Part shown: positions 1-15,286 of the stretch, piece by piece | How positions within the stretch are numbered: position 1 is the first letter of the stretch | How the letters are laid out: every line of letters begins with the position of its first letter | Source: a virus | Lineage: Duplodnaviria > Heunggongvirae > Uroviricota > Caudoviricetes | Virus record (IMG/VR): IMGVR_UViG_2554235189_000011 | Location: 1 to 43,336 of that record | Direction: 5' to 3' (one strand) | DNA length: 43,336 nt | The notes under the pieces: generated by a model | Told to the model about the DNA's origin: nothing | The model's input: the letters and a program-made list of their open reading frames with translations, nothing else | Database searches by the model: none | Made by a program: the position numbers and the translations under genes

Positions 1-293
1 CGCAAAATAAGCGGAAGCCTGGCGAAGGATATCGTTACTGCGGCGCAGTTCACGATTTTCACGTTCCAGCTCTTTCAGACGCTGACGTTCAGCGGTGGTG
101 AGTCCACCATCACCACTCCCGGTATCCCGCTCATGCTGGCGAACCCAGACACGCAGAGTCTCCGGCGTACAGCCAATCTTTGGGGCAATGGAACAAATTG
201 CCGCCCACTGTGAGTCATATTCATCCTGACTTTCCAGAACCATACGAATCGCCCGCTGACGGACTTCGGGGGAAAAACGAGTATTTTTAGTCA
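1..293 (-). CDS. IS3-family transposase OrfA (helix-turn-helix), C-terminus off window
   Basis: Revcomp of 241-293 translates [18 protein letters not shown]..., characteristic IS629/IS3 OrfA N-terminus; ATG at 293. Confidence 0.8.
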
Positions 294-348
294 TCCTGTT
301 TACCTCTTTCTCAGGGAGTTTAGTCTCCAGGATTTCCGGGGCGGTTCA
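1..348 (-). mobile_element. IS3-family insertion sequence (IS629-like), partial; element continues beyond window start
   Basis: Minus-strand orfA plus terminal inverted repeat (revcomp of 317-348 = TGAACCGCCCCGGAAATCCTGGAGACTAAACT) ending near 348; family name from memory. Confidence 0.8.
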
Positions 349-398
349 GTCGCCAGAAAATGAAATTAGGCAGCAAACCACTGTATGAGAGGTGAGAT

Positions 399-722
399 AT
401 GGAAGCATTAGTAGTAGAGCGAAGCGAGGATGGCTACTGGACGCACCCAGAATACGCCAACCTGTTTGGGGATAGAGAGGCAATTTCAGCTGATGAGTTC
501 AGATCTTTCTGCAAGCAGCATGGCATTGAATCATCAATTGTTGAAATGGAAAACGACAACAATCAAACGGTAATTGACGCGTATTTTGAAGATGGGAATC
601 CAAACATCAGTGGATGGGAGCCAAGCATGCCAGATGGAAAAGGATGGTTTGTCGGTTCGATTCACGATACAGAAGACGGTCCGATCTGCGTTTGGTTCAG
701 GAATGTAGATAAGGCCGCATAG
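399..722 (+). CDS. hypothetical protein (early-left operon, position of lambda N-ral region)
   Basis: 107-aa ORF preceded by GAGGTGAGAT RBS; no recognised motif. Confidence 0.55.
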   Translation: MEALVVERSEDGYWTHPEYANLFGDREAISADEFRSFCKQHGIESSIVEMENDNNQTVIDAYFEDGNPNISGWEPSMPDGKGWFVGSIHDTEDGPICVWFRNVDKAA

Positions 723-785
723 TCGGCCTTTATTTTTGGCATAAACAAGAGAATAAACACTGCACTGAATTATTTGAGGTGAGAT

Positions 786-1256
786 ATGACAAAATCATGG
801 AGCGTACCTTTTCCTGAATCAGAAACTGAACATGATGGAATGCCTGTTTTCTGGAGATTCCAAGCGACAGTTGAAGAAGATGGAATCAAAATATTCGCAC
901 TTCAATATATAGCTTTTCATCAGACAGAGCATTATGCATGGTTGGTTCCTTCGCATTGGATTGTTAATTTTAAACCAGCACCAAATCAGTGGTTACAGGA
1001 ATGGAAACAAAGGAGAAATAGATATGCAATTAAGAAAGTAGCAAAAAATGCAGAAAGATCTTTTGCATTCCCGACGAAGAAACTTGCCATTGAAAGTTTA
1101 TTGCGCCGGAAGAAATACCATTTGATGAGAATCAAACAAGATTTGGCTGTTGTATCAACTCTTGTTGATGGGATGAAGAATATTGATACATCAACACCAG
1201 ATATTGAATATAACTTTGGACACAACCAAGAAACAGAAAATTGGGTGTTTTATTAG
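786..1256 (+). CDS. hypothetical protein
   Basis: 156-aa ORF with the same GAGGTGAGATATG initiation region as the upstream gene. Confidence 0.55.
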   Translation: MTKSWSVPFPESETEHDGMPVFWRFQATVEEDGIKIFALQYIAFHQTEHYAWLVPSHWIVNFKPAPNQWLQEWKQRRNRYAIKKVAKNAERSFAFPTKKLAIESLLRRKKYHLMRIKQDLAVVSTLVDGMKNIDTSTPDIEYNFGHNQETENWVFY

Positions 1257-1360
1257 TACGAATAAGCACTGTGTATTCATTCCAACGAGTGAATACACGG
1301 AGCAATGTCGCTCGTAACTAAACAGGAGCCGACTTGTTCTGATTATTGGAAATCTTCTTT

Positions 1361-1388
1361 GCCCTCCAATGTGAGGGCGTTTTTTTAT
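1361..1388 (+). terminator. rho-independent terminator candidate
   Basis: GCCCTCCAATGTGAGGGC hairpin followed by TTTTTTTAT. Confidence 0.6.
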
Positions 1389-1406
1389 CTATGAGGATAT
1401 GAATAG

Positions 1407-1775
1407 ATGTCAAACATCAAAAAATACATCATTGATTACGACTGGAAAGCATCAATAGAAATTGAAATCGACCATGACGTAATGACAGAGGAAAAACTTC
1501 ACCAGATTAATAATTTCTGGTCAGACTCTGAATACCGACTCAATAAACACGGCGCTGTATTAAATGCTGTATTAATCATGCTGGCGCAACATGCTCTGCT
1601 TATAGCAATTTCGAAAGACTTAAATGCATATGGTGTTGTTTGTGAGTTCGACTGGGATGATGGAAATGGTCAGAAAGGATGGCCTCCAATGGATGGTAGT
1701 GAAGGAATAAGAATTGCCGATATCGATACATCAGGAATATTTGATTCAGATGATATGACTATCAAGGCCGCCTGA
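1407..1775 (+). CDS. ea10: lambda Ea10-like protein
   Basis: 122 aa, MSNIKKYIIDYDWKASIEIEIDHDV...; size and position upstream of cIII match lambda ea10. Confidence 0.75.
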   Translation: MSNIKKYIIDYDWKASIEIEIDHDVMTEEKLHQINNFWSDSEYRLNKHGAVLNAVLIMLAQHALLIAISKDLNAYGVVCEFDWDDGNGQKGWPPMDGSEGIRIADIDTSGIFDSDDMTIKAA

Positions 1776-1847
1776 GTGCGGTTTTACCGCATACCAATAA
1801 CGCTTCACTCGAGGCGTTTTTCGTTATGTATAAATAAGGAGCACACC

Positions 1848-2012
1848 ATGCAATATGCCATTGCAGGGTGGCCTGTTGCTGGCTGCCCTTCCGAATCTTT
1901 ACTTGAACGAATCACCCGTAAATTACGTGACGGATGGAAACGACTTATCGACATACTTAATCAGCCAGGAGTCCCCAAAAATGGATCAAATACTTATGGC
2001 TATCCAGACTAA
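1848..2012 (+). CDS. cIII: CIII (FtsH protease inhibitor)
   Basis: 54 aa MQYAIAGWPVAGCPSESLLERITRKL...; AAGGAG RBS upstream of ATG at 1848; the ORF-track entry 1776-2012 is an upstream extension. Confidence 0.85.
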   Translation: MQYAIAGWPVAGCPSESLLERITRKLRDGWKRLIDILNQPGVPKNGSNTYGYPD

Positions 2013-2124
2013 ATTCACTATCGCCACTTTTATTGGCGATGAAAAGATGTTTCGTGAGGCCGTCGACGCTTATAAAAAATGGATATTAATACTGAAACTG
2101 AGATCAGGCAAAAGCATTCACTAA
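1981..2124 (+). CDS. kil: Kil (host-killing / FtsZ-inhibiting peptide)
   Basis: 47 aa [47 protein letters not shown]; overlaps cIII by 32 nt as in lambda. Confidence 0.8.
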
Positions 2125-2199
2125 TCCCCTTTCCTGTTTTCCTAATCAGCCTGGCATTTCGCGGGCGATATTTTCACAGCCATTTTCAGGAGTTCAGCC

Positions 2200-2496
2200 A
2201 TGAACGCTTATTACATTCAGGATCGTCTTGAGGCTCAGAGTTGGGCGCGTCACTACCAGCAGATCGCCCGTGAAGAGAAAGAGGCAGAACTGGCAGACGA
2301 CATGGAAAAAGGCCTGCCCCAGCACCTGTTTGAATCGCTATGCATCGATCATTTGCAACGCCACGGGGCCAGCAAAAAAGCCATTACCCGTGCGTTTGAT
2401 GACGATGTTGAGTTTCAGGAGCGCATGGCAGAACACATCCGGTACATGGTTGAAACCATTGCTCACCACCAGGTTGATATTGATTCAGAGGTATAA
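2200..2496 (+). CDS. gam: Gam (RecBCD inhibitor), short-form ORF only
   Basis: 98 aa [21 protein letters not shown]...; the long-form start MDINTETEI at 2079 is in another frame and terminates near 2231. Confidence 0.85.
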
Positions 2497-2501
2497 AACG
2501 G

Positions 2502-3287
2502 ATGACTACAGCACTCGCAACGCTGGCTGGGAAGCTGGCTGAACGTGTCGGCATGGATTCTGTCGACCCACAGGAACTGATCACCACTCTTCGCCAGACG
2601 GCATTTAAAGGTGATGCCAGCGATGCGCAGTTCATCGCATTGTTGATCGTCGCCAACCAGTACGGCCTTAATCCGTGGACGAAAGAAATTTACGCCTTCC
2701 CTGATAAGCAGAACGGCATCGTTCCGGTGGTGGGCGTTGATGGCTGGTCCCGCATCATCAATGAAAACCAGCAGTTTGATGGCATGGACTTTGAGCAGGA
2801 CAATGAATCATGTACATGCAGGATTTACCGCAAGGACCGTAATCATCCGATCTGCGTTACCGAATGGATGGATGAATGCCGCCGCGAACCATTCAAAACC
2901 CGCGAAGGCAGAGAAATCACCGGACCGTGGCAGTCGCATCCCAAACGGATGTTACGGCATAAATCCATGATTCAGTGTGCCCGTCTCGCCTTCGGATTTG
3001 CTGGTATCTATGACAAGGATGAAGCCGAGCGCATTGTCGAAAATACTGCATACACTGCAGAACGTCAGCTGGAACGCGACATCACTCCGGTTAACGATGA
3101 AACCATGCAGGAGATTAACACTCTGCTAATCGCCCTGGATAAAACATGGGATGACGACTTATTGCCGCTCTGTTCCCAGATATTTCGCCGCGACATTCGC
3201 GCATCGTCAGAACTGACACAGGCCGAAGCAGTGAAAGCTCTTGGATTCCTGAAACAGAAAGCCACTGAGCAGAAGGTGGCAGCATGA
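2502..3287 (+). CDS. bet: Bet (Red-beta single-strand annealing protein)
   Basis: 261 aa, near-identical over its length to recalled lambda Bet. Confidence 0.92.
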
Positions 3288-3964
3288 CACCGGACATTAT
3301 CCTGCAGCGTACCGGGATCGACGTGAGAGCTGTCGAACAGGGGGATGATGCATGGCACAAATTACGGCTCGGCGTCATCACCGCTTCAGAAGTTCACAAC
3401 GTGATAGCAAAGCCCCGCTCAGGAAAGAAGTGGCCTGACATGAAAATGTCCTACTTCCACACCCTGCTGGCTGAGGTTTGCACCGGTGTGGCTCCGGAAG
3501 TTAATGCTAAGGCGCTGGCCTGGGGAAAACAGTACGAGAACGACGCCAGAACCCTGTTTGAATTCACTTCCGGCGTGAATGTTACTGAATCCCCGATCAT
3601 CTATCGCGACGAAAGTATGCGCACCGCCTGCTCTCCCGATGGTTTATGCAGTGACGGCAACGGCCTTGAGCTGAAATGCCCGTTTACCTCCCGGGATTTC
3701 ATGAAGTTCAGGCTCGGTGGTTTCGAGGCCATAAAGTCGGCTTACATGGCCCAGGTGCAGTACAGCATGTGGGTGACGCGAAAAGATGCCTGGTACTTTG
3801 CCAACTATGACCCGCGTATGAAGCGTGAAGGCCTGCATTATGTCGTGGTTGAGCGGGATGAAAAGTACATGGCGAGTTTTGACGAGATGGTGCCGGAGTT
3901 CATCGAAAAAATGGACGAGGCACTGGCTGAAATTGGTTTTGTATTTGGGGAGCAATGGCGATGA
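3284..3964 (+). CDS. exo: Exo (Red-alpha 5'-3' exonuclease)
   Basis: 226 aa [40 protein letters not shown]...; start overlaps bet stop. Confidence 0.92.
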
Positions 3965-4143
3965 AGCATCCTCACGATAATATCCGGGTAGGCACGATCA
4001 CTTTCGTCTACTCCGTTACAAAGCGAGGCTGGGTATTTCCCGGCCTTTCTGTTATCAGAAATCCACTGAAAGCACAGCGGCTGGCTGAGGAGATAAATAA
4101 TAAACGGGGGGCTGTATGCACAAAGCATCTCCTGTTGAGTTAA
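3955..4143 (+). CDS. lambda orf60a-like small protein
   Basis: 62-aa [16 protein letters not shown]... immediately after exo. Confidence 0.6.
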
Positions 4144-4307
4144 GAACGAGTATCGAGATGGCACATAGCCTCGCTCAAATTGGAGTCAGGTTTGTGCCAA
4201 TACCAGCAGAAACAGACGAAGAATTTCATACGTTAGCCACATCCCTTTCACAAAAGCTGGAAATGATGGTGACGAAAGCAGAAGCAGATGAGAGAGACCA
4301 GGTATGA
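4116..4307 (+). CDS. lambda orf63-like small protein
   Basis: 63-aa ORF in conserved position. Confidence 0.55.
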   Translation: MHKASPVELRTSIEMAHSLAQIGVRFVPIPAETDEEFHTLATSLSQKLEMMVTKAEADERDQV

Positions 4308-4383
4308 CAACCACTGAATGCATTCTTCTGGCAGCGGGCTTCATATTCTGTGTGCTTATGCTTGCCGACATGGGACTTGTTCA

Positions 4384-4599
4384 ATGACACCTCAGCAGGA
4401 AAACGCCCTTCGCAGCATTGCCCGTCAGGCTAATTCTGAAATCAAAAAAGCCAGACAGAAGTTTCCGGATAAAAACGTCGATGACATTTGCCGTAGCGTA
4501 CTGAAGAAGCACCGCGAAACGGTAACGCTGATGGGATTCACACCGACTCACTTAAGTCTGGCAATCGGTATGTTAAACGGCGTCTTTAAGGAACGGTGA
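4384..4599 (+). CDS. lambda orf61-like small protein
   Basis: Internal start MTPQQENALRSIARQ... of ORF 4318-4599; overlaps preceding small ORF as ATGA. Confidence 0.5.
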   Translation: MTPQQENALRSIARQANSEIKKARQKFPDKNVDDICRSVLKKHRETVTLMGFTPTHLSLAIGMLNGVFKER

Positions 4600-4697
4600 A
4601 CATGAAAAGCAAAATCATCAGGGAGCTACAGGCTCCTTTTTTATTATTCGCATTCACCCTCAAGCGTATTAACCAACAATTCAGGGATTAATGAAAG

Positions 4698-4919
4698 ATG
4701 GCAGATATCATTGATTCAGCATCAGAAATTGAAGAATTACAGCGCAATACAGCAATAAAAATGCGTCGCCTGAACTACCAGACTGTATCCGCAACTCATT
4801 GTTGTGAGTGTGGCGATCCGATAGATGAACGAAGACGCCTGGCAGTTCAGGGTTGTCGGACTTGTGCAAGTTGCCAGGAGGATCTGGAACTTATCAGTAA
4901 ACAGAGAGGTTCGAAGTGA
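4698..4919 (+). CDS. TraR/DksA-family zinc-finger protein (lambda orf73-like)
   Basis: 73 aa with CxxC...CxxC (CCECGDPIDERRRLAVQGCRTCASC). Confidence 0.75.
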   Translation: MADIIDSASEIEELQRNTAIKMRRLNYQTVSATHCCECGDPIDERRRLAVQGCRTCASCQEDLELISKQRGSK

Positions 4920-5383
4920 GCGAAATTAACTCTCAGGCACTGCGTGAAGCGGCAGAGCAGGCAATGCATGACGACTGGGGATTTGACGCAGACCTTTTCC
5001 ATGAATTGGTAACACCATCGATTGTGCTGGCACTGCTGGATGAACAGGAAAGAAACCAGCAATACATCAAACGCCGCGACCAGGAGAACGAGGATATTGC
5101 GCTAACGGTAGGGAAGCTGCGCGTTGAGCTTGAGGAGACAAAATCAAAACTCAACGAGCAGCGCGAGTATTACGAGGGAGTTATCTCTGATGGGTGCAAG
5201 CGTATTGCTGAACTGGAAGCGCGGGAAGTTCAATTACCGACTCGCTACGACCTTCGATATGGACACCCGATAAATGCAGATGAGCGACAAGTCATGATAC
5301 CTAAAGAAAATGGCAGTTGGCTTTACCTGATTGACCTAGAACACGCATTACGCGTCGCTGACATTCGCATCAAAGGAGAGTGA
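4916..5383 (+). CDS. hypothetical coiled-coil protein
   Basis: 155-aa ORF, charged and helical-looking; translationally coupled. Confidence 0.55.
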   Translation: MSEINSQALREAAEQAMHDDWGFDADLFHELVTPSIVLALLDEQERNQQYIKRRDQENEDIALTVGKLRVELEETKSKLNEQREYYEGVISDGCKRIAELEAREVQLPTRYDLRYGHPINADERQVMIPKENGSWLYLIDLEHALRVADIRIKGE

Positions 5384-5384
5384 T

Positions 5385-5900
5385 ATGGCGTTAACACACC
5401 ACGAACTCTGTCAGATTGCGTACAAGTTCCTTAAGCGCAACGGGTTCAAGGTTTGCTTTCATGACCGCTTTGTTGCTGTAACCAGTACCGGAGAACAGCC
5501 AGATGCTATGGGATTCAGAAATTCAGCATCATGCCTGATAGAGGCGAAGTGTTCTCGTGCTGACTTGTTGGCAGATAGAAAAAAGCGTTTCCGTAAAAAT
5601 CCCTCACTTGGCATGGGCGACTGGCGATTCTTTATTAGTGAGCCGGAAATTATTTCAGTTGAGGATTTACCTCCCGGCTGGGGATTACTTCACGTTGTTA
5701 ACGGAAGAGTACGGAAAGTACATGGATGGCCCAGGGGTAATTGCTGTTGGGGTAATCCTGACGATAAGCCATTTACCGGGAATAAGCAGGTTGAATGCGA
5801 TTACATGTTATCTGCATTAAGGCGCATGGAGTTGAGAGGGCACCTTAATGAAATATATGACGGTGTGATTGTTAATAAGAAAGAAGGAAACGCGGCATGA
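5385..5900 (+). CDS. hypothetical protein, possible PD-(D/E)xK nuclease fold
   Basis: 171 aa; PD...EAK arrangement (PDAMGFRNSASCLIEAK) is suggestive only. Confidence 0.5.
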   Translation: MALTHHELCQIAYKFLKRNGFKVCFHDRFVAVTSTGEQPDAMGFRNSASCLIEAKCSRADLLADRKKRFRKNPSLGMGDWRFFISEPEIISVEDLPPGWGLLHVVNGRVRKVHGWPRGNCCWGNPDDKPFTGNKQVECDYMLSALRRMELRGHLNEIYDGVIVNKKEGNAA

Positions 5901-6400
5901 TCACTATTACCAAAGGGCGACTGCTGACAATCAAGCAGTGGCGCGAAACATACGGACCGGGTAGCAACGTTGTACTGCCAGCAGAAGAAGCGGAAGAACT
6001 GGCAAGAATTGCGCTGGCATCACTGGAAGCAAAACCAATAGCGTGGGAATGCGGCGAAAACATAATCCTGTTTAATCCTGACACAGTTGAAGCATACGCA
6101 AAACGTGCGGAGGTATCACCTAAACCACTATATGCCGCGCCGCCAGTTCCGGTAACTCCGGATGGTTGGATAAGCTGTAGTGAGCAAATGCCAGAAATGG
6201 GAGAGCGACAATGCTATGTGTTAGCGGCTGACTTTAAAAACAACTACCCGCCAAACATCCCCAACACTCAGGTCGGCGTATATGGCGACTGGTTTAATGA
6301 TGGCAATCCCACTTGGGATGACGGTGATGGCGAAGACCTGTATCTCAAAGAGGTAACCCACTGGATGCCGCTACCGGAACCGCCGCAGGAGGTGAAGTGA
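5897..6400 (+). CDS. DUF551-like prophage protein
   Basis: C-terminal ...EVTHWMPLPEPP signature typical of DUF551. Confidence 0.7.
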   Translation: MITITKGRLLTIKQWRETYGPGSNVVLPAEEAEELARIALASLEAKPIAWECGENIILFNPDTVEAYAKRAEVSPKPLYAAPPVPVTPDGWISCSEQMPEMGERQCYVLAADFKNNYPPNIPNTQVGVYGDWFNDGNPTWDDGDGEDLYLKEVTHWMPLPEPPQEVK

Positions 6401-6483
6401 TGAATTGGCCTGAAGCATTCACCGCTGTAGGAGTTGCAATAGCGGTGGCATTTATTCTGTATTCGCTTTTCCGCTGGGGATAA
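6400..6483 (+). CDS. small hydrophobic peptide (27 aa)
   Basis: MNWPEAFTAVGVAIAVAFILYSLFRWG; strong CAGGAGGTGAAGTG RBS; start overlaps upstream stop. Confidence 0.4.
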   Translation: MNWPEAFTAVGVAIAVAFILYSLFRWG

Positions 6484-6487
6484 AGGA

Positions 6488-6730
6488 ATGTTCGCTCTGA
6501 TTCAACGTGGTCAGATATACACCGATAGCGCCGGCTATCCGATAAAAATTCTTCGCTGCATAAACAACACTGTGTTGTACAGAAGAATGGATGGGCGAAC
6601 ACAGTCGGTAAAAATAAACGATTTTAATGAACTGTTTGAACGGATTGATCACCAGGAATACCGACAAATTCTGGCAGAAACAGAGCAGGAAGCTCATCTG
6701 AAAAAATTACGAGCCATGAAAAGGAAGTAA
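6488..6730 (+). CDS. hypothetical protein
   Basis: 80-aa ORF in operon context. Confidence 0.5.
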   Translation: MFALIQRGQIYTDSAGYPIKILRCINNTVLYRRMDGRTQSVKINDFNELFERIDHQEYRQILAETEQEAHLKKLRAMKRK

Positions 6731-6888
6731 AGAATGAATAAAGCATTTGAACGATTGGTCCACCAACGTTACGGCAATCACTATGACCTGACGCGAGATG
6801 GTGACGGTTTCTACTGTCGTGAAGTTGTGAAGCGAATGTTTGACGTGTGGTGCCACTGCCGTGGGCTGAGTGTTGTGTGAGGTGATGT

Positions 6889-7098
6889 ATGGGGCTGGAT
6901 TGCGTGCCTATATCAACCTACTGCCGCGACGCGGGAGAAACGGTTGATGCCGTTAACAAACGGATACAAAGAGGAATATGGAAAGAAGGGGTTCATGTAT
7001 TAAAAGTCGATGGAGTTAAAGAACGCTGGGTCGACTTAATAGAGGTTTCAAAATGGGCAAGAAAGAACAAGGATTATTATCTCTGCCAAGAGGAGTAA
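6889..7098 (+). CDS. xis: excisionase-like DNA-binding protein
   Basis: 69 aa immediately upstream of and overlapping int; ...RIQRGIWKEGVHVLKVDG... Xis-like motif. Confidence 0.65.
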   Translation: MGLDCVPISTYCRDAGETVDAVNKRIQRGIWKEGVHVLKVDGVKERWVDLIEVSKWARKNKDYYLCQEE

Positions 7099-8231
7099 CT
7101 ATTCGTAAGCATAAAACTGCTTCAACACTAGTTATCACTTTCACATATAAAGGGGTTCTTTGCAGGGAGCCCCTGTCTCGGCTTGAGGCAAATACACGTG
7201 GTATTAAATATGCTGAGCGCCTGCTAGGGGAGATACAAAATCAGATCGCCAGCGGAACGTTTGAATATGCGAAATATTTCCCCAGTTCCAAAAAACTGGA
7301 GTTATTCGGTATAGTAAAGAAAACCAAAAATATTAAGTCCTATCTTGATGAATACCTGAAAATTTGCATGAACCGCAATCTGTCGCCGTCAACCATTGGC
7401 GGTTACGAAAAATGTATATCAGCACTATCAGAGCTACATAAACTACATGTAACAGAATTGACGCCTGCGGTACTAAAAAATTGGATAGCCAGCCGAAAAA
7501 CTAAGCTGAAAACAATCAGGAATAACCTGTCATTTCTGCGCAGCGCCATTGATGAGGCTGTAACTGATGGCCTGTTGACTATTAACCCGGTAACTCTTGT
7601 CAGCGCCAGCCGGTATCACGTGGTCGACAGTAAACCGAACGCCGACGATTACGAAGTTGATCCGTTTGCGCCTGCGGAAACCAGTGCCATATATCAGCAC
7701 TGCAAGTATCAGGAATGGCAGAATCTGTTCCGCTTCGCCTTCAATACAGGGCTACGCAGCTCTGAGCTATGCGCATTACGTTGGACCGATATCGACTTTA
7801 TAGGTAATACAGCGCACATACAGGCGGCCAGTGTCGTAGGGGTACTTAAAGGCACCAAGACAAAAGCCGGTACCCGTAAGGTGGAGCTGAACAGTGAGGC
7901 TCTGGCGGCCCTGCAGGCGCAGAAGCAATACACCTTTATGAAAAGTGAGTTCATATTCAGCGATCCGAAAACGGGAGATCCCTGGACGAACGCCGACGCT
8001 ATCCGTAAAAAAGCATGGGTGCCGACCCTAAAAAAAGCTGGTGTGCGCTACCGTAACCCGTACCAGACGCGCCACACATTCGCCACCAGACACATTAGCC
8101 AGGGTGTAAACCTTTTCTGGCTTGCCGGGCAGATGGGGCATAAGGGGCCGGAAATGCTGTTCCGCAATTACGGTAAATACCTGGCTGAATACGACGGGAA
8201 AACCGCAATGGAAGCTGGAATGAAGAATTGA
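7053..8231 (+). CDS. int: tyrosine integrase
   Basis: 392 aa; C-terminal catalytic region with R...HxxR...Y (RHTFATRHISQG...GHKGPEMLFRNYGKY). Confidence 0.9.
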   Translation: MGKKEQGLLSLPRGVTIRKHKTASTLVITFTYKGVLCREPLSRLEANTRGIKYAERLLGEIQNQIASGTFEYAKYFPSSKKLELFGIVKKTKNIKSYLDEYLKICMNRNLSPSTIGGYEKCISALSELHKLHVTELTPAVLKNWIASRKTKLKTIRNNLSFLRSAIDEAVTDGLLTINPVTLVSASRYHVVDSKPNADDYEVDPFAPAETSAIYQHCKYQEWQNLFRFAFNTGLRSSELCALRWTDIDFIGNTAHIQAASVVGVLKGTKTKAGTRKVELNSEALAALQAQKQYTFMKSEFIFSDPKTGDPWTNADAIRKKAWVPTLKKAGVRYRNPYQTRHTFATRHISQGVNLFWLAGQMGHKGPEMLFRNYGKYLAEYDGKTAMEAGMKN

Positions 8232-8244
8232 TTTGAAGAAAAAA

Positions 8245-8267
8245 CCCGGCAAATGCCGGGTCTTTTT
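8245..8267. terminator. bidirectional rho-independent terminator between convergent int and 8273-9040
   Basis: CCCGGCAAATGCCGGG hairpin flanked by A-tract and T-tract. Confidence 0.7.
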
Positions 8268-8272
8268 GATGG

Positions 8273-9040
8273 TTATTCTGTCGCGCCACCTATCGAAACA
8301 TAATCATGAAATTGATCGTCAATGAGTCGGTCCTTACAGATAACATGTACAATGTGACGACAACAGTTTTCATCATCATACGCACGACCCCAGCGAACAA
8401 TCTCATCTACAGACAGATCATTCGCACTCCATGGCAAAGTACCTGAAACACCACGCGCACCTGGACCAAGTATGTCCATAAATTTCTTCGTGCGTGAATT
8501 GTAGATCCGTACCTCGGCAATTCGAATGATGCTACTAGCCCAAAGAGCACCACCGGCAATACTTTGAATGTTATCGCAGATGAGAAACTCATGCTTTCGC
8601 GCAAGCATTTTATAGATCTCACGCGCCAAACCTGCTGATTGGAAATCCTGTGCGATAACAGCGCTTTTCACTTGCTTTCCGGTCATCATCTGACCGTTCT
8701 CTTCGATAAAATTAAAGTCGTTGAACTGTATACGACCTATTCTTATCGTTTTGTTATCGTCTACCATATCAAGACCCAAGAGGGTATTGACCAGATCCTG
8801 CATTGGAACCTTCGAATCAAGAAGGTCACTGCCATAGTCTAAAAAAAAGTCGTCGGTGGAACATCCCAGTTGATACACATCCAAGTAGTACTGAAACTCA
8901 CCAGAACTGACAATGTACTCATCAGCCCTCAGTAAGCCAGCCTCGGCAGTGAAAAAATAGAATGACTCAATAAGACGTTTTTCGCCAAATGGCGTGATGT
9001 TCAAGTCCTTGTTATATGAAGGTATTAACGCAGGAGCCAT
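8273..9040 (-). CDS. hypothetical protein (distal gene of int-att cargo operon)
   Basis: 255-aa ORF; no confident motif; lower GC than phage core. Confidence 0.6.
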   Translation of the reverse strand: MAPALIPSYNKDLNITPFGEKRLIESFYFFTAEAGLLRADEYIVSSGEFQYYLDVYQLGCSTDDFFLDYGSDLLDSKVPMQDLVNTLLGLDMVDDNKTIRIGRIQFNDFNFIEENGQMMTGKQVKSAVIAQDFQSAGLAREIYKMLARKHEFLICDNIQSIAGGALWASSIIRIAEVRIYNSRTKKFMDILGPGARGVSGTLPWSANDLSVDEIVRWGRAYDDENCCRHIVHVICKDRLIDDQFHDYVSIGGATE

Positions 9041-9051
9041 TCAGCAACCTT

Positions 9052-9393
9052 TTAATGGTAGTTAATTTCCCTGTAGTTCTTCTGCATGTATAGAGCAATT
9101 GCCGCTTCAATTTTCTTCAGCAGATTACTGCTTACATACTGAGGATACTGATCTGCTGGCTTCACAACATAGCGCAATTTTTCTTTGTTCATGGCGATCT
9201 CAGCGAACGGGATCACGTCACCGTCACGAACCTCATTGTTCAATGTCACAATAAACAGCTGACGTGCCGGGGAGACACGATCACTCAGTCTTCTCACGAA
9301 GAACTCGTTTGCTGTGTTTGAGTCAACAAAAGAACTGACGAGTTGAGTCCGACGCTCAATCGTCTGTATCGATCTTCTCGCTACTGTTCTCAT
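9052..9393 (-). CDS. hypothetical protein (proximal gene of int-att cargo operon)
   Basis: 113-aa ORF 11 nt upstream of 8273-9040, same strand. Confidence 0.6.
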   Translation of the reverse strand: MRTVARRSIQTIERRTQLVSSFVDSNTANEFFVRRLSDRVSPARQLFIVTLNNEVRDGDVIPFAEIAMNKEKLRYVVKPADQYPQYVSSNLLKKIEAAIALYMQKNYREINYH

Positions 9394-9721
9394 GCTAGTC
9401 TCCTCAACACTTCACTAGCTGTGCAGTGAAGGTACAAAAAGCCACTGATGATAACAGCGTCATCAGTGGCCCTTGATGGTGATAACCGCAGTTATCTAAA
9501 TAGTATGATATTACCTTACGGGTAATTCTTCAACGATTGCTCTGAATTGAATAGTCTTGAAGTGCTATGAACAGCACAAAACAGCGCTAATCACCGCCCC
9601 AGTGGCGCCTAAACACTTCAAAATGTTGGACAGAATCAGGACGTTAGAAGCACTACAATATGCACGTAAAATGCACGTGAGGTATTTTAAATTAGAAAAA
9701 TCATTAATATTCAATTGGTTA

Positions 9722-9763
9722 AGAATTTTTCGGATACGGGTTCAACTCCCGCCAGCTCCACCA
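9722..9763 (+). other. att core: partial copy of the ssrA (tmRNA) 3' end
   Basis: AGAATTTTTCGGATACGGGTTCAACTCCCGCCAGCTCCACCA matches the recalled E. coli ssrA 3' end with a few mismatches; no tmRNA body upstream. Confidence 0.75.
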
Positions 9764-9972: not shown

Positions 9973-11004
9973 ATGGAAGCTACTGTGGATTCGATTGATT
10001 TTCTGATCCGTAGTGAAGATGATTTTCTAAACTTTCTGGAAGAAATGAAAGCCCGAGAGGGGCTTGATTCTAAAGAGTTTATTTTCCCTAACGTAAAGTT
10101 TGCAGGCTGGCCATCCTTAGACATAAATGTTAAAGGAGAGCGGTATCATTCATCAATTACATCAGCAATGTTGTTTGGTATGTCAATGCTCAACGAGGAG
10201 ATACAGCGGGCGTTTGCAACCATACGATACGGATCGCAGAATCTTCAACGCTTGACTAATGAAGACAAGCAACGACTTGATATAAATTTTAAAATTAGCG
10301 AAGGTTCTAGTGATGCGGAAGGCACCACTGACAAGATCATCAACGCAGTAACTGATTTTTTGCGAGATACTATGTCTGGACTGAACGGCTGGCAGAAAAT
10401 GCTTGTTATAATCACAATGGTTGGCGCGGCCAGCACATGTGGTTATCACTACATTTCAGAAAATGCCGTAACAGAAAGACATGCAACTGATCGGCAGGTT
10501 GAAATTGCGAAAACCACATCCGATGGCATAAACAAAGCCATAGAAGCAACATTAGATTATAAAATCTATGGGAAATCAGCGATTAGCGATAAAGTTACTA
10601 GTCACGGACAAGCAGGTAAAAGTGCTTTAGTGAAGCAATTAGCTGCTGATCCTACTGTCGAAACCGTGACTTTAGGAAATGAGAAACTAACACGACAAGA
10701 CCTAAATACCTACAACAGCCGACAATCTGTAGATAGAGAACGTAAAGAACGAACTGATATATTTTCCATCAAAGGTGTAACCAGAACAGGGCCAACAAAT
10801 CAGGATATTAATATTAACGTTGTTAGGGTCTCTAATGACGAATGCTTCACAATCAAAGCTTCAGCTGATGTTATCACCCAAGATGAGTTGACAGCTATTG
10901 TTGACGCTTTGTCAAACAACTCTCATATTAAAATCAGTTACTTAGAGGTAATTGAAAAGGGTGCTGTTTCTATAGGTCAGTTCAACACTATTGTTTCAGA
11001 ATAA
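9973..11004 (+). CDS. hypothetical protein with central hydrophobic segment (low-GC cargo)
   Basis: 343-aa ORF; AAGGA RBS; hydrophobic stretch WQKMLVIITMVGAASTCGYHYI. Confidence 0.6.
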   Translation: MEATVDSIDFLIRSEDDFLNFLEEMKAREGLDSKEFIFPNVKFAGWPSLDINVKGERYHSSITSAMLFGMSMLNEEIQRAFATIRYGSQNLQRLTNEDKQRLDINFKISEGSSDAEGTTDKIINAVTDFLRDTMSGLNGWQKMLVIITMVGAASTCGYHYISENAVTERHATDRQVEIAKTTSDGINKAIEATLDYKIYGKSAISDKVTSHGQAGKSALVKQLAADPTVETVTLGNEKLTRQDLNTYNSRQSVDRERKERTDIFSIKGVTRTGPTNQDININVVRVSNDECFTIKASADVITQDELTAIVDALSNNSHIKISYLEVIEKGAVSIGQFNTIVSE

Positions 11005-11055: not shown

Positions 11056-11400
11056 ATGTCCTTAAAGTATGCACATGAAAAATTTCATACTGCAGTACTT
11101 ACTCTTGCGGGCCATGGAAGTATTCAAGAACGCTTGATTAATTCGTATGTTTTTAGCCTTGGGCATCTTAAAACAGCCGATGATATTCCAAATGCCTTAC
11201 AAAGCAGGTTCGATGAATTATGTAAGGAACTGACTAAGTTTGATGCCACTGGCGATGAGGGGCGAGTTCAAGCAACAGTATCAAAACTTAACGATTTCGA
11301 GATCAATAAACTGATCGAAGATATTGTCAGTCTTAACGATGATATTTGCATGAAATTGGCTCTGACGGATGAGACTTACCAAGACATACACCAAAGTTAA
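11056..11400 (+). CDS. hypothetical protein (low-GC cargo)
   Basis: 114-aa ORF downstream of 9973-11004. Confidence 0.55.
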   Translation: MSLKYAHEKFHTAVLTLAGHGSIQERLINSYVFSLGHLKTADDIPNALQSRFDELCKELTKFDATGDEGRVQATVSKLNDFEINKLIEDIVSLNDDICMKLALTDETYQDIHQS

Positions 11401-11484: not shown

Positions 11485-11697
11485 CTATTTATGATGTAAT
11501 CCGGACATCAGTTCATGGACAAGATTATCTCTTTCATTGTGTTGCAACCGTAAATGCATAGCAAAAAGGTGAGCACTATCCTCATTCCTCTTCAAGCCAT
11601 GCTGTTCAAGATACCCGAAAAAACGGCTTCTCTTATCCGCTATTTCCTGAGTCTGACGTGCAACATTTACCAAATTTTCTAGCGTTTTTCTTGGCAT
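11485..11697 (-). CDS. hypothetical small protein
   Basis: 70-aa ORF with strong AGGAGG RBS. Confidence 0.55.
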   Translation of the reverse strand: MPRKTLENLVNVARQTQEIADKRSRFFGYLEQHGLKRNEDSAHLFAMHLRLQHNERDNLVHELMSGLHHK

Positions 11698-11895: not shown

Positions 11896-12450
11896 TTATT
11901 TATCTCCTGCCGGAAACCTCTGATACAAAGTCGATACGCCAACATCATAGATAATCGCAACTTTCTGGCGCGGAACTCCTGATGCAATTAATCGTCCGGC
12001 TTGTGCCCATTGTTCTGGTGTAAGTTTGGGACGACGTCCACCAATTCGTTCCTGTGCGCGAGCAGCTTCCAGTCCAGCTTTTGTTCGTTCAACAATCAGT
12101 TCTCGTTCCATTTCAGCCAGGGCCCCCATCACATGAAAGAAAAAGCGCCCCATTGGGGTACTGGTATCAATTGAATCCGTCAGACTACGAAAGTTGATGC
12201 CTCGTTCGCGCAACTCCTCCACCAGCACGACAAGATGCCGCATACTGCGCCCCAGCCGGTCCAGTTTCCAGACCACCAGCGTGTCACCTGCCGATAATGT
12301 CCTGAGCAGTTTTTTCAGTCCCGGCCTTTCGGACTTTGTACCGCTTATCTTGTCTTCAAAAATCAGCTCGCATCCTGCACAGTTCAGCGCATTACGTTGT
12401 AGATCTGTGTTCTGGTCATTTGTTGATACGCGTACATAGCCAATAAGCAT
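11896..12450 (-). CDS. pin: serine recombinase, DNA invertase (Pin/Gin/Hin/Cin family)
   Basis: Internal start MLIGYVRVSTNDQNTDLQRNAL...; 184 aa; close to recalled e14 PinE. Confidence 0.9.
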   Translation of the reverse strand: MLIGYVRVSTNDQNTDLQRNALNCAGCELIFEDKISGTKSERPGLKKLLRTLSAGDTLVVWKLDRLGRSMRHLVVLVEELRERGINFRSLTDSIDTSTPMGRFFFHVMGALAEMERELIVERTKAGLEAARAQERIGGRRPKLTPEQWAQAGRLIASGVPRQKVAIIYDVGVSTLYQRFPAGDK

Positions 12451-12504
12451 GGTAGATCCCCCTGACAAAAGCAGGAATGATGCCATTTGCTCGTTATTTC
12501 TGCA

Positions 12505-12530
12505 TTTCCATAAACGTTGGTTTGGGAGAA
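12505..12530. repeat. invertase crossover site (pix/gix-like), pin-proximal
   Basis: TTTCCATAAACGTTGGTTTGGGAGAA; 15 nt of its reverse complement are identical to the site at 14396-14421. Confidence 0.7.
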
Positions 12531-12998
12531 GGCTCTGCATTACCTGTTGGTGTGCCTGTTCCATGGCCTTCAGCCACACCGCCAACAGGCTGGCTGAAAT
12601 GCAACGGTGCGGCATTTTCTGCTGAAGAATACCCGGAACTGGCAAAGGCTTATCCAACAAATAAATTACCTGATTTACGCGGTGAGTTTATTCGTGGCTG
12701 GGATGACGGGCGCGGTATTGATGCAGGACGTGTTTTATTGAGTATTCAGGCCGGAATGCTGGAAAAGCACCGTCATCCTGTTGTCGCCAACGATGGGTAT
12801 GACTCAAAAGAGGAATGGGAACTGGCGACAATCTTCAGAAGAGCATATACGCAAGGCAGGGGGCTTGATGCTGCCGCTGCCGGAGGGAGTCTGATCCCAT
12901 CACCGACACTTCATTCACGAGGGAGTATCGGTAATACTGGCGGGAGTGAAACCCGTCCACGAAATATTGCATTTAACTATATCGTGAGGGCTGCATAA
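12531..12998 (+). CDS. alternative tail-fiber C-terminal variable segment, currently silent
   Basis: Start-less ORF beginning at the crossover site (...GLGE GSALPVGVPVPWPSATPPTGWLKCNGAAF...). Confidence 0.7.
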   Translation, partial: GSALPVGVPVPWPSATPPTGWLKCNGAAFSAEEYPELAKAYPTNKLPDLRGEFIRGWDDGRGIDAGRVLLSIQAGMLEKHRHPVVANDGYDSKEEWELATIFRRAYTQGRGLDAAAAGGSLIPSPTLHSRGSIGNTGGSETRPRNIAFNYIVRAA

Positions 12999-13708
12999 TG
13001 GATAACGCCGTATTAAATAGCGAGCTTATTACCACGAAGGCGGGGAATATTACCGTCTATAACTATGATGGTGAGACGCGGGAATATATTTCTGCATCAA
13101 CTGAATATCTTGCAGTGGGTGTCGGTATTCCAGCATATTCCTGTTTAGACGCTCCTGGTACATCTAAGGCTGGTTATACAATTTGCCGTTCTGTGGATTT
13201 AAAATCATGGGAATATGTGTCAGACCATCGCGGTGAAATCGTCTATAACACCGAAACGGGAGATGCCAAAGAAATCACAGCACTAGGCGACTATCCCGAA
13301 AATACAACCACTATCGCCCCGTTAACGCCATACGATAAATGGGATGGTGAAAAATGGGTGACAGATACTGAGGCACAACACGGTGCCGCAGTAGAAGCGG
13401 CAGAAGCACAGCGCCAGTCACTGATTGATGCAGCAATGGCTTCCATCAGTCTGATTCAACTGAAATTGCAGGCCGGACGTAAACTGACGCAGGCAGAAAC
13501 AACCAGACTTAACGCTGTGCTGGATTACATTGACGCGGTGACGGCAACAGATACCAGCACCGCGCCGGATGTCATCTGGCCTGAACTGCCGGAGGCGCAG
13601 GCCATTCAATATCTGGCGCACTGGAGGAATCAACCAGTTCCAGTGCGTCCAGATAATCCAGCCACAAATTATATTGCGCCAGTTCATCATCTTTCAGACG
13701 ACCAATAG
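12998..13708 (+). CDS. tail fiber assembly protein (alternative)
   Basis: 236 aa; conserved Tfa C-terminal motif ...LDYIDAVTATDTSTAPDVIWPELP. Confidence 0.75.
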   Translation: MDNAVLNSELITTKAGNITVYNYDGETREYISASTEYLAVGVGIPAYSCLDAPGTSKAGYTICRSVDLKSWEYVSDHRGEIVYNTETGDAKEITALGDYPENTTTIAPLTPYDKWDGEKWVTDTEAQHGAAVEAAEAQRQSLIDAAMASISLIQLKLQAGRKLTQAETTRLNAVLDYIDAVTATDTSTAPDVIWPELPEAQAIQYLAHWRNQPVPVRPDNPATNYIAPVHHLSDDQ

Positions 13709-14024
13709 CGGCTTTACCGGGCCATTGCTTACTGTTCATGTATTCGTTGGCTTGGTTAATTAGTAGCTGTCTTTCTGATTCAGTAATTTCAATAAGTTCT
13801 TCATGCGTGGGTGGAGGAATCTCTGCCCACGCAGGCAGCCCATCATCTCCGGCAATACGGATTTTTCCTTGTGGCGGTTCAGCCATAAACTCACTGATAA
13901 TATTTTGATTTACTTCCTTAGCGTCTGATAAATCCCATCCCTCTGATTTATATTTATCAATCATATCCACAGGGAAAAAAGCATTATGCCTTGCGCTATA
14001 AACATATTCGTTCATATAAATCAC
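13572..14024 (-). CDS. tail fiber assembly protein (expressed orientation)
   Basis: 150 aa; ...LDYLDALELVDSSSAPDIEWPAPP motif; convergent with the alternative tfa. Confidence 0.75.
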   Translation of the reverse strand: MIYMNEYVYSARHNAFFPVDMIDKYKSEGWDLSDAKEVNQNIISEFMAEPPQGKIRIAGDDGLPAWAEIPPPTHEELIEITESERQLLINQANEYMNSKQWPGKAAIGRLKDDELAQYNLWLDYLDALELVDSSSAPDIEWPAPPAVQAR

Positions 14025-14035
14025 CCTGAATAAAA

Positions 14036-14698
14036 TTACTCACCAACAGCCCACCAACTGTAATTCATCGATACCGTGTCGCTGGTTGATGACGTTCTGT
14101 AAGCAGAATTAAAGCCGGTTAACGTTGGGCCTTCTGCAGTCATCACGGACCCTCGCCCAGCGCCTAAAGGCGCACCGCCATCACCAGAATGAGTAAGCAT
14201 GGCGCAGTCCGCTTTTTTGGGGAAAGGGATGCTAAATGTAATTCTCATTGTTTGCGTCGATAATGTCGGCGTAACCGCACCACGACCATATTGCAGGATT
14301 TTCCCGTTGGGTAATTTCATCCATCCATCACCACTGGCAAAAGAGGCCATGTCCGGTATCTGATTTTCCCCTGTCCCTACATCCCGTTTTGCCGCTTCTC
14401 CCAAACCAAGGTTTTCGAGAGCCGTTTTCACCGTGCCATCCGATTTGATATCGCCAAACGGATTCTTGCGGCTTAACAGCAGCGCGCGAAGCGCGGTAAG
14501 TAGCTGGTCGTGCCGCCCCTTCTCCAGGCTGGCACCGGACGCCTCCACAACGCTGCAAAGCTCCTCCTGCAACATGTCAAAGTAGTCATCATCCAGATCG
14601 GTGGCAGGCGTGCCGGTCTGGGGGTTACCACGGGTAAAACCGTTCTTACCCGCGCCGAACTTATCCTTCTGCGCGGTTTTCGTGTCTATACGATGCAT
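14036..14698 (-). CDS. tail fiber protein (short constant N-terminus plus variable C-terminus)
   Basis: 220 aa; contains the crossover site at ENLGLGE. Confidence 0.75.
14396..14421. repeat. invertase crossover site (pix/gix-like), inside tail fiber gene
   Basis: TTCTCCCAAACCAAGGTTTTCGAGAG; close to the recalled gix consensus. Confidence 0.7.
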
Positions 14699-14701
14699 GG
14701 A

Positions 14702-15286
14702 TTACTCCGGATATTTAAAAATTACGTAGGTATGCGACGGGCAGAGTTTGTTAAGCACACATTCGACAACTGTGTCGCCCCAGATACGCAGTGCGGAATC
14801 ACAGGGATCGCCACATGTCATCCAGGTGGTGTTGGTGGCGGCTGGCATGTTGACCTGCCAGTAATACCGCCATTCAGGCGCGTTCACAGCGTCAGTACAG
14901 GCCGATGAGCAGGTGAACGTGCTTTTGTCGTATCGCGCGATGGTGGCATCTGGTCTGCCCAGGGCAGCAAGCTGTGCAAGATAAAAATCCTCGTTGATGC
15001 CGCCCGCCAGGTTAACCTTCGCATCCAGCCGTTGCTGACGCTGGCGAAGGGTCTGTGTCCCTGCGGGAATACATTCATCCGGCAGGCCGCACAGACGCTC
15101 CCAGCGATTTATCAGTTCGGTGGTGGTGCGCGGATCCAGCTCCCGCATCAGGGCATCCGCACGCTGATGAACGCGGGTTAATGACGGTGCCGCACCGGCA
15201 ATCGCCGGATCGCTGGCTGACCACGCCGGACCGGGGGGCAACAGTGCCGACAACAGACGGATGTAATCATCGTTTGTCACGTCCAT
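14702..15286 (-). CDS. Mu gp48-like baseplate/tail protein
   Basis: 194 aa, position between baseplate J and tail fiber. Confidence 0.7.

Follow-up and report, generated by a model that had tools for sequence, protein, structure and literature searches.

The P segment and the invertase PinE of e14, a defective prophage of E. coli K-12, were reportedly described by Plasterk and van de Putte in 1985. Both orientations of this K-12 homologue were later found to coexist by whole-genome sequencing and PCR (Goldberg 2014, PMC4272514), and qPCR measurement showed that the segment is inverted by PinE and PinQ (Kirigo 2025, PMC12529663). The locus analysed here lies in a stretch of 43,336 bp (the window, meaning the whole DNA that was studied). 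A reading of its letters made beforehand (the sequence-only reading) had pointed to e14 as the system to compare with, and the likeness was clear: the gene order (ymfQ-stf-tfa-tfa-stf'-pin) and the fibre N-terminus are the same, Pin is identical to K-12 PinE at 179 of 184 residues (97%), and the crossover sites are nearly identical. Since a PinE orthologue, pix sites and the same gene order are found together, we assign the locus to the classical e14 P-segment system. With a probability of about 0.93, we regard the locus as a site-specific DNA-inversion switch with two states, which belongs to the Hin/Gin/Cin/Pin family and represents an allele of the e14 'P segment'. It is an ordinary, intact copy of a long-known system and adds no new mechanism to it.

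The two loci differ, however, in several respects. Different alleles are present for the variable tips and for one chaperone N-terminus, with identity falling sharply after GLGE; the segment measures 1797 bp in K-12 and 1893 bp here, and one of the tfa genes in the window has lost its stop codon. The e14-type switch is housed here in a related but different prophage, which lies by an ssrA att core, whereas e14 resides at icd. This prophage has retained genes for head, tail and lysis, and unknown cargo genes take the place next to pin where e14 has mcrA. For these cargo genes, PADLOC, Pfam and NCBIfam returned nothing, and PHROGs only a family of unknown function.

With the G segment and Gin of Mu, the locus shares the layout (Sc, Sv-U / U'-Sv', invertase), the half-site pattern of the 26-bp sites, and a spacer of 54 bp between site and start codon; Gin is 78% identical to Pin. 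In contrast, Mu has a far longer fibre of about 504 aa (CDS 31458-32972 of the Mu record), its sites have another central dinucleotide, and U and U' do not overlap. The C segment of P1 encodes a Cin that is 83% identical, its annotated crossover point is the central TT of cixL, and the cin enhancer (nt 19-90) is homologous to nt 19-90 of pin, but the cix site closest to cin is found at the 3' end of that gene and not upstream. P2-like phages such as Escherichia phage pro483 match 79% of the query at ~90% nucleotide identity, and the match spans the invertase, both tfa genes and the fibre tips; their cassettes, however, sit on a P2-type phage backbone with another constant fibre part. The Hin/H segment of Salmonella relies on a recombinase of this family and on sites and an enhancer that work by the same logic (PMC3798978), but what it flips is a promoter that controls flagellin genes, and no coding 3' ends of a fibre gene are exchanged. 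The features of the locus are collected in Table 1.

Table 1. Features of the locus, with coordinates in the window
Feature	Position	Strand	Description
pin	11896-12450	-	184-aa serine DNA invertase, adjoins the segment; catalytic Ser9 in motif YVRVSTNDQ
Predicted Fis-dependent recombinational enhancer	12361-12432	-	pin nt 19-90, by homology
Spacer, pin ATG to crossover site	12451-12504	-	54 bp; pin ribosome-binding site GGGGGA
Pin-proximal crossover site (pix-type)	12505-12530		Central dinucleotide 12517-12518; TTTCCATAAACG TT GGTTTGGGAGAA
Invertible segment	12517-14409		1893 bp, central dinucleotide to central dinucleotide
Sv', silent alternative fibre C-terminus	12531-12998	+	155 aa, tail-collar type
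tfa', chaperone for Sv'	12998-13708	+	236-aa ORF, homologous end 13597; PF02413 at residues 78-199
tfa, chaperone for currently expressed tip	13572-14015	-	147 aa; PF02413 (7e-31), phrog_188
Sv, currently expressed variable C-terminus	14036-14395	-	119 aa, gp53-like
Fibre-proximal crossover site	14396-14421		Central dinucleotide 14408-14409; TTCTCCCAAACC AA GGTTTTCGAGAG; inside codons for ...ENLGLGE
Sc, constant fibre N-terminus	14410-14698	-	Outside the segment, with start codon; 101 codons with the site codons (...ENLGLGE), 14396-14698
ymfQ-like baseplate gene (Mu gp48 family)	14702-15286	-	Directly upstream of the fibre gene; PF10076

Fibre tips and carrier prophage

The constant part of the fibre is near-identical to K-12 StfP over its first ~100 aa, with 1 difference, and matches phrog_1396 (tail fibre N-terminus). 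As the ymfQ-like gene lies directly upstream, the switch comes last in the late tail operon. In the fibre encoded at present, residues 128-219 correspond to PF21882 (Gp53-like_C). In-silico inversion at the central dinucleotide converted this 220-aa protein with a gp53-like tip into an in-frame 256-aa fibre with a collar-type tip; the junction reads ...ENLGLGE-GSALPVG..., which is the fusion that had been proposed from the letters of the window. The fused Sv' protein carries PF07484 (Collar, 2e-15), matches phrog_523 (tail collar fibre) and is 62% identical to K-12 StfE. The alternative C-termini, each with its Tfa chaperone, join the constant N-terminus in frame, and the exact fused proteins were found in public data on 17 contigs (220 aa) and 108 contigs (256 aa). 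The alternative segment had also been called start-less. The silent cassette can indeed be fused in frame; however, an ATG exists at 12477/12480, in the spacer, on the strand opposite to pin and upstream of the site, and from it a small ORF, annotated by PGAP as a gene, reads through the site.

This ORF bears on the role of the switch, whose main present function might be the anti-phage defence of the host and not the host range of virions, a reading that we consider unlikely. Through the left site, the ORF captures the cassette that is not attached to the fibre: its computed product is a 173-aa collar-type protein in the present orientation and a 137-aa gp53-like protein after inversion, and a 136-aa form is annotated by PGAP and occurs on 99 contigs. 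The ORF is analogous to K-12 StfE2, a protein with a gp53-like C-terminus that is reported to arise by inversion of the e14 P segment and to block T2, at adsorption, and other phages (Kirigo et al. 2025, PMC12529663). The state of the carrier also makes a virion host-range role doubtful. IS elements interrupt the early region of the prophage, the window contains a tape-measure gene that is split, and the prophage appears to be truncated or defective, so virions with a changeable host range may never form. Of ssrA, the window contains only the 3' end, as the att core (9728-9763) by which the prophage lies, and ARAGORN found no tmRNA in the window. Against a defensive role, the gp53-like tip has diverged so strongly from K-12 StfP after the GLGE motif that the K-12 result is not transferable, the ATGs stand at 0 to 3 nt from the AGGA motif, a poor spacing for initiation, and the scan found no promoter. 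A defensive role is compatible with the main explanation, as it concerns the role of the switch and not its mechanism.

By analogy, one could go further and suppose that the switch, in a prophage that has probably lost the ability to form virions, is kept for the benefit of the host, although we judge this to be quite unlikely. The spacer ORF would free the unjoined tip, giving rise to two receptor-masking, superinfection-exclusion states, and the strongly structured tfa junction could insulate the late transcript in either orientation.

Invertase, predicted enhancer and crossover sites

Pin is built like the small serine recombinases, with a resolvase catalytic domain at its N-terminus (PF00239 Resolvase, 8e-51) and an HTH at its C-terminus (PF02796 HTH_7). 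The comparison with the structure of Mu Gin (3UJ3) gave an E value of 2e-92, and Ser9 aligned with the catalytic position of Gin in 3UJ3 and 4M6F. The Q-x-x-R-L motif and the basic residues of helix B are conserved among the Fis/enhancer-dependent invertases Hin, Gin and Cin (PMC3798978). Pin carries these residues specific for Fis/enhancer activation (basic helix B, and Q-x-x-R-L of HTH helix 1): its K46, K47, R50 and QAGRL align with K46, R47, K50 and QAGRL of Gin.

An enhancer is predicted by homology in the 5' part of pin. In the P1 record, nt 19-90 of cin are annotated as the enhancer, and the corresponding interval of the window agrees with K-12 pinE at 72/72 positions, with P1 at 57/72 and with Mu at 55/72; nt 1-110 of pin are 100% identical to K-12 pinE. 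Two Fis-like 15-bp cores (12414-12428 and 12366-12380) have their centres 48 bp apart. A degenerate double-Fis pattern hit the expected place (12366-12428), but it gave 3 matches versus 3.1 expected and is no rarer than chance; homology to the enhancer annotated in P1 was used for the prediction instead. The spacer upstream of pin, equal in length to the gixR-to-gin spacer of Mu in L004, presumably holds the pin promoter. No sigma-70 promoter for pin passed the consensus scan, and a weak hairpin behind the minus-strand tfa was all that the terminator scan revealed.

Aligned as inverted repeats, the two 26-bp sites agree at 20 of 26 positions and contain the 15-nt identical core (12517-12531 and 14395-14409) that had been noticed earlier. 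The central dinucleotide is common to both, being AA in each when they are written in the same polarity. We scanned both strands of the window with the Gin/Cin/Pin crossover consensus, TTNTCNNAAACCNNGGTTTNNGANAA, allowing up to 3 mismatches, and checked the outcome against 100 shuffles. Exactly two matches were obtained in the 43,336 bp, and they are these sites; since the shuffles gave an expectation of 0.02 matches and none of the 100 contained two or more, this is more than chance would produce. The 14-nt core alone is weaker evidence (8 of 100 shuffles had at least two matches at up to 2 mismatches). On the fibre side, the site has the same 26 letters as in K-12 e14, and on the pin side the two loci differ by 1 nt (25 of 26 positions agree). 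The supposed resemblance to gix/pix was borne out, as the sites match those of K-12 (pix), Mu (gix) and P1 (cix), and AAAC occupies positions 8-11 in all 14 half-sites compared. Because the window holds no further consensus sites at up to 3 mismatches, the locus is best described as a simple two-state switch. A multi-inversion system like Min of p15B was ruled out on the same two-site result.

The mechanism that we propose follows that of the family. The fibre gene is split: the start and the first 101 codons lie outside the segment, where the late tail operon ends, and two alternative C-terminal receptor-binding cassettes are arranged head to head within the segment, each with an assembly chaperone of its own behind it. 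Pin dimers would bind both 26-bp sites, while Fis would bind the enhancer in the 5' end of pin. Cleavage of the central dinucleotide, rotation and religation would then flip 12517-14409. The orientation of the window provides the 220-aa fibre with a gp53-like tip and the 147-aa Tfa, and the inverted state the 256-aa fibre with a collar-type tip and the other Tfa. A population of lysogens would therefore carry both fibre types. The dependence on Fis and the enhancer, the central 2-bp cleavage and the consequence for host range are likewise expected from the related systems.

Flipping could also be carried out mainly by another Pin-family invertase acting in trans and not by the adjacent pin. 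It is established knowledge that Pin-family invertases cross-complement. In K-12, inversion of the e14 segment by PinQ, from the prophage Qin, is stronger than that by PinE (PMC12529663). However, the adjacent pin is full length, has its catalytic serine and is 97% identical to the PinE that inverts the K-12 segment, a K-12 pinE mutant is locked in one orientation (PMC12529663), and the other pin-like sequence within the window is only a short remnant (41321-41578). We therefore consider an invertase in trans improbable as the main agent.

Overlap of the two chaperone genes

Both convergent genes in the segment belong to the tail-fibre assembly family Caudo_TAP (PF02413), as had been claimed. 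An overlap of about 137 nt between them had been reported as well. The ORFs do overlap by 137 nt (13572-13708), but the figure is inflated by the loss of a stop codon. In K-12, NJS001 and TUM1880, the protein has 200 aa and the overlap measures 29 nt. At 13598-13600, the stop codon TAG of tfa' has become CAG (CTA vs CTG in the alignment with K-12), which adds 36 codons antisense to the other tfa. The codon is also CAG in NWU_1 and JNE132847, and TAG in NJS001. PGAP flags the gene with 'missing C-terminus'. The 137-nt overlap thus results from a single-base change on top of a conserved overlap of 29 nt; it is a secondary effect and no design feature. The loss of the stop codon might impair the collar-type state.

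That the antisense overlap is a designed arrangement of overlapping genes would be in line with its extent, with the 236-aa form being stable enough to occur on 139 contigs, and with the strong structure of the junction RNA on both strands. We rejected this as highly improbable on the 29-nt overlap of the relatives, the loss of the stop by one base and the end of the Pfam domain at residue 199, and PGAP, moreover, calls the gene incomplete.

Orientation of the segment in natural isolates

The sequence-only reading had proposed to look for both orientations in sequence data, and both were seen, in near-identical strains as well as among complete genomes. This evidence consists of comparisons between the assemblies of different strains and not of reads of the source strain. 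Over 9201 bp, NWU_1 and NWU_3 differ by nothing but one exact inversion: to make their loci identical, an interval has to be inverted whose ends fall within 12517-12532 and 14394-14409, and no breakpoint was outside these limits. The breakpoints are thereby inside the core of the sites. In JNE132847, the flanks are 99.96% identical to those of the window and the segment is inverted; when the window was inverted in silico, it matched JNE132847 over its full length, at 100.0% as reported. Among clonal cattle isolates, 113, 114 and 118 have one orientation and 119-140 the other, and the complete E. coli genomes divide into 61 and 70 by orientation. These comparisons indicate that the segment inverts between the two sites. 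The invertase, the sites, the two fibre ends with their chaperones and both orientations were all found, which upholds the earlier claim of a Pin-type invertible tail-fibre switch.

A fossil switch, in which inversion has ceased and the repeats merely mirror a conserved G-L-G-E motif of the fibre, is scarcely credible: the prophage is probably defective and one tfa gene has lost its stop codon, but Pin and both sites are intact, the otherwise identical loci of sister strains differ by exact inversions, the window and JNE132847 have opposite orientations at such high flank identity, and complete genomes are split roughly evenly.

The two-state inversion switch explains why the assemblies of near-identical strains differ at this locus, and it accounts for the 'start-less' fibre fragment and the 'partial' chaperone gene of annotation pipelines. 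The value of the finding lies mainly in annotation, as the switch shows which proteins are alternative products of one locus, and the sister strains, with 0 differences outside the flip, provide a clean natural example of Pin-mediated inversion.

Organization of the invertible segment and its crossover sites

The proposal of the sequence-only reading, that this locus is a Pin-type invertible tail-fiber switch, was upheld by the presence of a PinE-like invertase, paired crossover sites, an in-frame fusion and the occurrence of both orientations in sister strains. The two 26-bp sites, which had been described as inverted and sharing an identical 15-nt core, ranked first among the inverted repeats reported by the repeat finder (20 nt, 95% complementarity), and the pairwise comparison agreed with that description. 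Written in one polarity they read TTCTCCCAAACC AA GGTTTTCGAGAG and TTCTCCCAAACC AA CGTTTATGGAAA, with 20 of 26 positions in agreement, an identical 15-nt core and the same central dinucleotide. With up to three mismatches allowed, the palindromic family consensus TTNTCNNAAACCNNGGTTTNNGANAA matched only these two sites in the 43-kb window, against 0.02 matches expected, which argues that the pair is real and not due to chance.

Features of the switch and its surroundings
Feature	Coordinates	Strand	Remarks
pin (invertase) ORF	11896-12450	minus	555 nt
Fis-like cores	12414-12428; 12366-12380		15 bp each
Spacer between pin and site			54 bp
Pin-side crossover site	12505-12530		26 bp
Fiber C-terminus ORF	to 12998	plus	
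tfa-like ORF	12998-13708	plus	
tfa-like ORF	13572-14015	minus	
Fiber ORF	14036-14698	minus	220 aa
Fiber-side crossover site	14396-14421		26 bp, inside the 220-aa fiber ORF
Small ORF	12477-12998		ATG at 12477/12480
Cargo genes	9973-11004; 11056-11400; 11485-11697		343, 114 and 70 aa
Upstream prophage	1-9760		
Tyrosine integrase	7053-8231		
att core	~9728-9763		ssrA 3' end
Transposase sequence	~39700-40611		IS family
pin-like remnant	41321-41578	minus	

The suspected resemblance to gix/pix sites was also evident, as both sites align with those of K-12 e14, with gixL and gixR from the Mu record, and with P1 cixL, the central TT of which is marked as the crossover in the P1 record; AAAC at positions 8-11 is common to all 14 half-sites compared. 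In Mu, too, the spacer between the site and the start codon of the invertase has a length of 54 bp. The suggested comparison with the e14 invertible segment of K-12 revealed an identical gene order (ymfQ, stfP, tfaP, tfaE, stfE, pinE) and near identity of the constant fiber part, both crossover sites, the joined tfa 3' ends and pin, whereas divergence affects the fiber tips and, in one chaperone, the N-terminal part; judged from sequence, this divergence is typical cassette mosaicism. A large part of the cassette, invertase included, is shared at ~90% identity with P2-like phages (for example, pro483), and HK97-type side fibers carry the collar-type tip with its chaperone.

Fusion of the fiber gene and evidence for inversion

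Upstream of the fiber gene lie ymfQ (Mu gp48 family) and the genes for baseplate J, gp46 and gpV, so that the fiber gene closes a Mu-like tail operon. The expressed 220-aa fiber joins a tail-fiber N-terminus to a gp53-like C-terminal domain, and the silent cassette encodes a phage tail-collar domain. In silico inversion of 12517-14409 reproduced the claimed in-frame fusion of ENLGLGE to GSALPVG: the ORF stays open, and its product, MHRID...ENLGLGE (101 aa) followed by GSALPVG...IVRAA, has 256 aa instead of 220. Exact copies of both fused proteins are found among public sequences: 17 contigs carry the 220-aa form and 108 the 256-aa form. The window half-site GGTTTGGGAGAA encodes G-L-G-E, and the corresponding half-sites of Mu (GGTTTACAGGAA) and P1 (GGTTTAAGAGAA) encode G-L-Q-E and G-L-R-E, indicating that the three switches all cut in the same conserved fiber motif.

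To count orientations, 5,426 complete E. coli genomes were searched, and a genome was counted if at least 80% of the query was covered in one piece. The window arrangement was found in 61 and the inverted one in 70, so that both orientations are represented in sequence data. Strain JNE132847 matched the inverted query best (full length, 100.0% as reported); it shares 99.96% identity with the window in the flanks, but its segment aligns on the opposite strand. Among three sister strains, NWU_1 has the orientation of the window, and NWU_3 and NWU_4 have the other; once one interval is inverted, NWU_1 and NWU_3 show zero differences over 9201 bp. The ends of this inversion may lie anywhere within 12517-12532 and 14394-14409, a range that falls within the identical core and has the central dinucleotide as its outer limit. 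Clonal cattle isolates are also split by orientation (113, 114 and 118 versus 119-140). For the K-12 homologue, whole-genome sequencing and PCR showed that both orientations coexist in clonal cultures (PMC4272514), and both PinE- and PinQ-mediated inversion were quantified by qPCR (PMC12529663).

A small ORF that starts in the spacer beside pin runs through the pin-side crossover site and has 173 aa in the window orientation and 137 aa, with the gp53-like tip, after inversion; its ribosome-binding-site spacing is poor. Its predicted product, the analogue of StfE/StfE2 of K-12, would bear the unattached fiber tip. StfE2 was reported to block T2 adsorption and an anti-phage role was claimed for it (PMC12529663), which makes such a role of the small ORF a possibility by the same analogy.

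The invertase and the chaperone genes

pin encodes a small recombinase of the serine family that contains a Resolvase and an HTH_7 domain. Its alignment to the solved Mu Gin structure covers the full length (E 2e-92) and puts Ser9 at the catalytic position. The protein is identical to K-12 PinE in 179 of 184 residues; for P1 Cin the identity is 83%, and for Mu-type Gin it is 78%. Residues conserved among Fis/enhancer-dependent invertases have been reported for Hin, Gin and Cin (PMC3798978); of these, K46, K47, R50 and QAGRL are present in Pin according to its alignment to Gin. In the P1 record, nt 19-90 of cin are marked as the Cin enhancer; over this stretch pin is identical to cin at 57/72 positions and to gin at 55/72, and nt 1-110 of pin are identical to K-12 pinE. 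Two Fis-like cores were located with their centers 48 bp apart. The degenerate double-Fis pattern, with 3 matches in the window and 3.1 expected, is no rarer than chance, so the Fis-dependent enhancer predicted within the 5' end of pin is placed solely by positional homology. A remnant of a second pin-like serine recombinase gene, which matches pinE at ~85% of nucleotides along a 141-nt stretch, is annotated as a partial recombinase in JNE132847; its neighbors are IS fragments and a truncated autotransporter.

The two convergent tfa genes, said to overlap by about 137 nt, both encode Caudo_TAP tail-fiber assembly proteins, and the overlap is present; in K-12, NJS001 and TUM1880, however, the plus-strand gene has 603 nt (200 aa) and overlaps its partner by only 29 nt. 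The excess comes from codon 13598-13600 of the tfaE-like gene, CAG in the window and a TAG stop in those three strains, which extends the ORF by 36 codons antisense to the partner tfa and changes Thr to Ala in the partner protein. In the plus-strand chaperone, the Pfam domain stops at residue 199, and in NWU_1, NWU_3 and JNE132847 the gene is labeled partial ("missing C-terminus") by PGAP. Its presence on 139 public contigs marks the 236-aa form as a lineage polymorphism rather than a sequencing error. Unusually strong RNA folding was observed on both strands of the tfa/tfa junction (13490-13700; z -5.2 and -4.6), with a weak terminator-like hairpin after the minus-strand tfa stop (13568-13554). 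Whichever way the segment is oriented, this predicted structure could shield pin and the silent cassette from transcription reading through from the late operon.

The carrier prophage

The window comprises two prophages in tandem that meet at the att core, the upstream one being lambdoid and ending with a tyrosine integrase; no intact tmRNA gene is present anywhere in the window. The switch-bearing prophage has head, tail, lysis and antitermination genes, and its early region is cut off by transposase sequence. There, JNE132847 has an extra IS30 copy that the window lacks, which indicates that the window is close to, but distinct from, that assembly. Single bases present in JNE132847 are missing from the window in an A run and a G run (20240 and 21589); the second of these 1-nt differences splits the tape-measure gene into two ORFs (20383-21579/21576-22214). 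The cause is either homopolymer sequencing error or true inactivation. From the interrupted early region and the split gene, the prophage is probably defective, like e14.

Three cargo genes lie between pin and the att core, a slot occupied by mcrA in K-12 e14 and by a GIY-YIG protein in NJS001. They gave no Pfam, PADLOC or NCBIfam match, the sole match being phrog_6191 (unknown function), and may be uncharacterized accessory or defense genes; the 343-aa protein is found on at least 1000 contigs.

The system is already known, with pinE annotated in RefSeq relatives and experimentally characterized in K-12, and the locus is an allelic form of the classical Pin/e14 P-segment switch.
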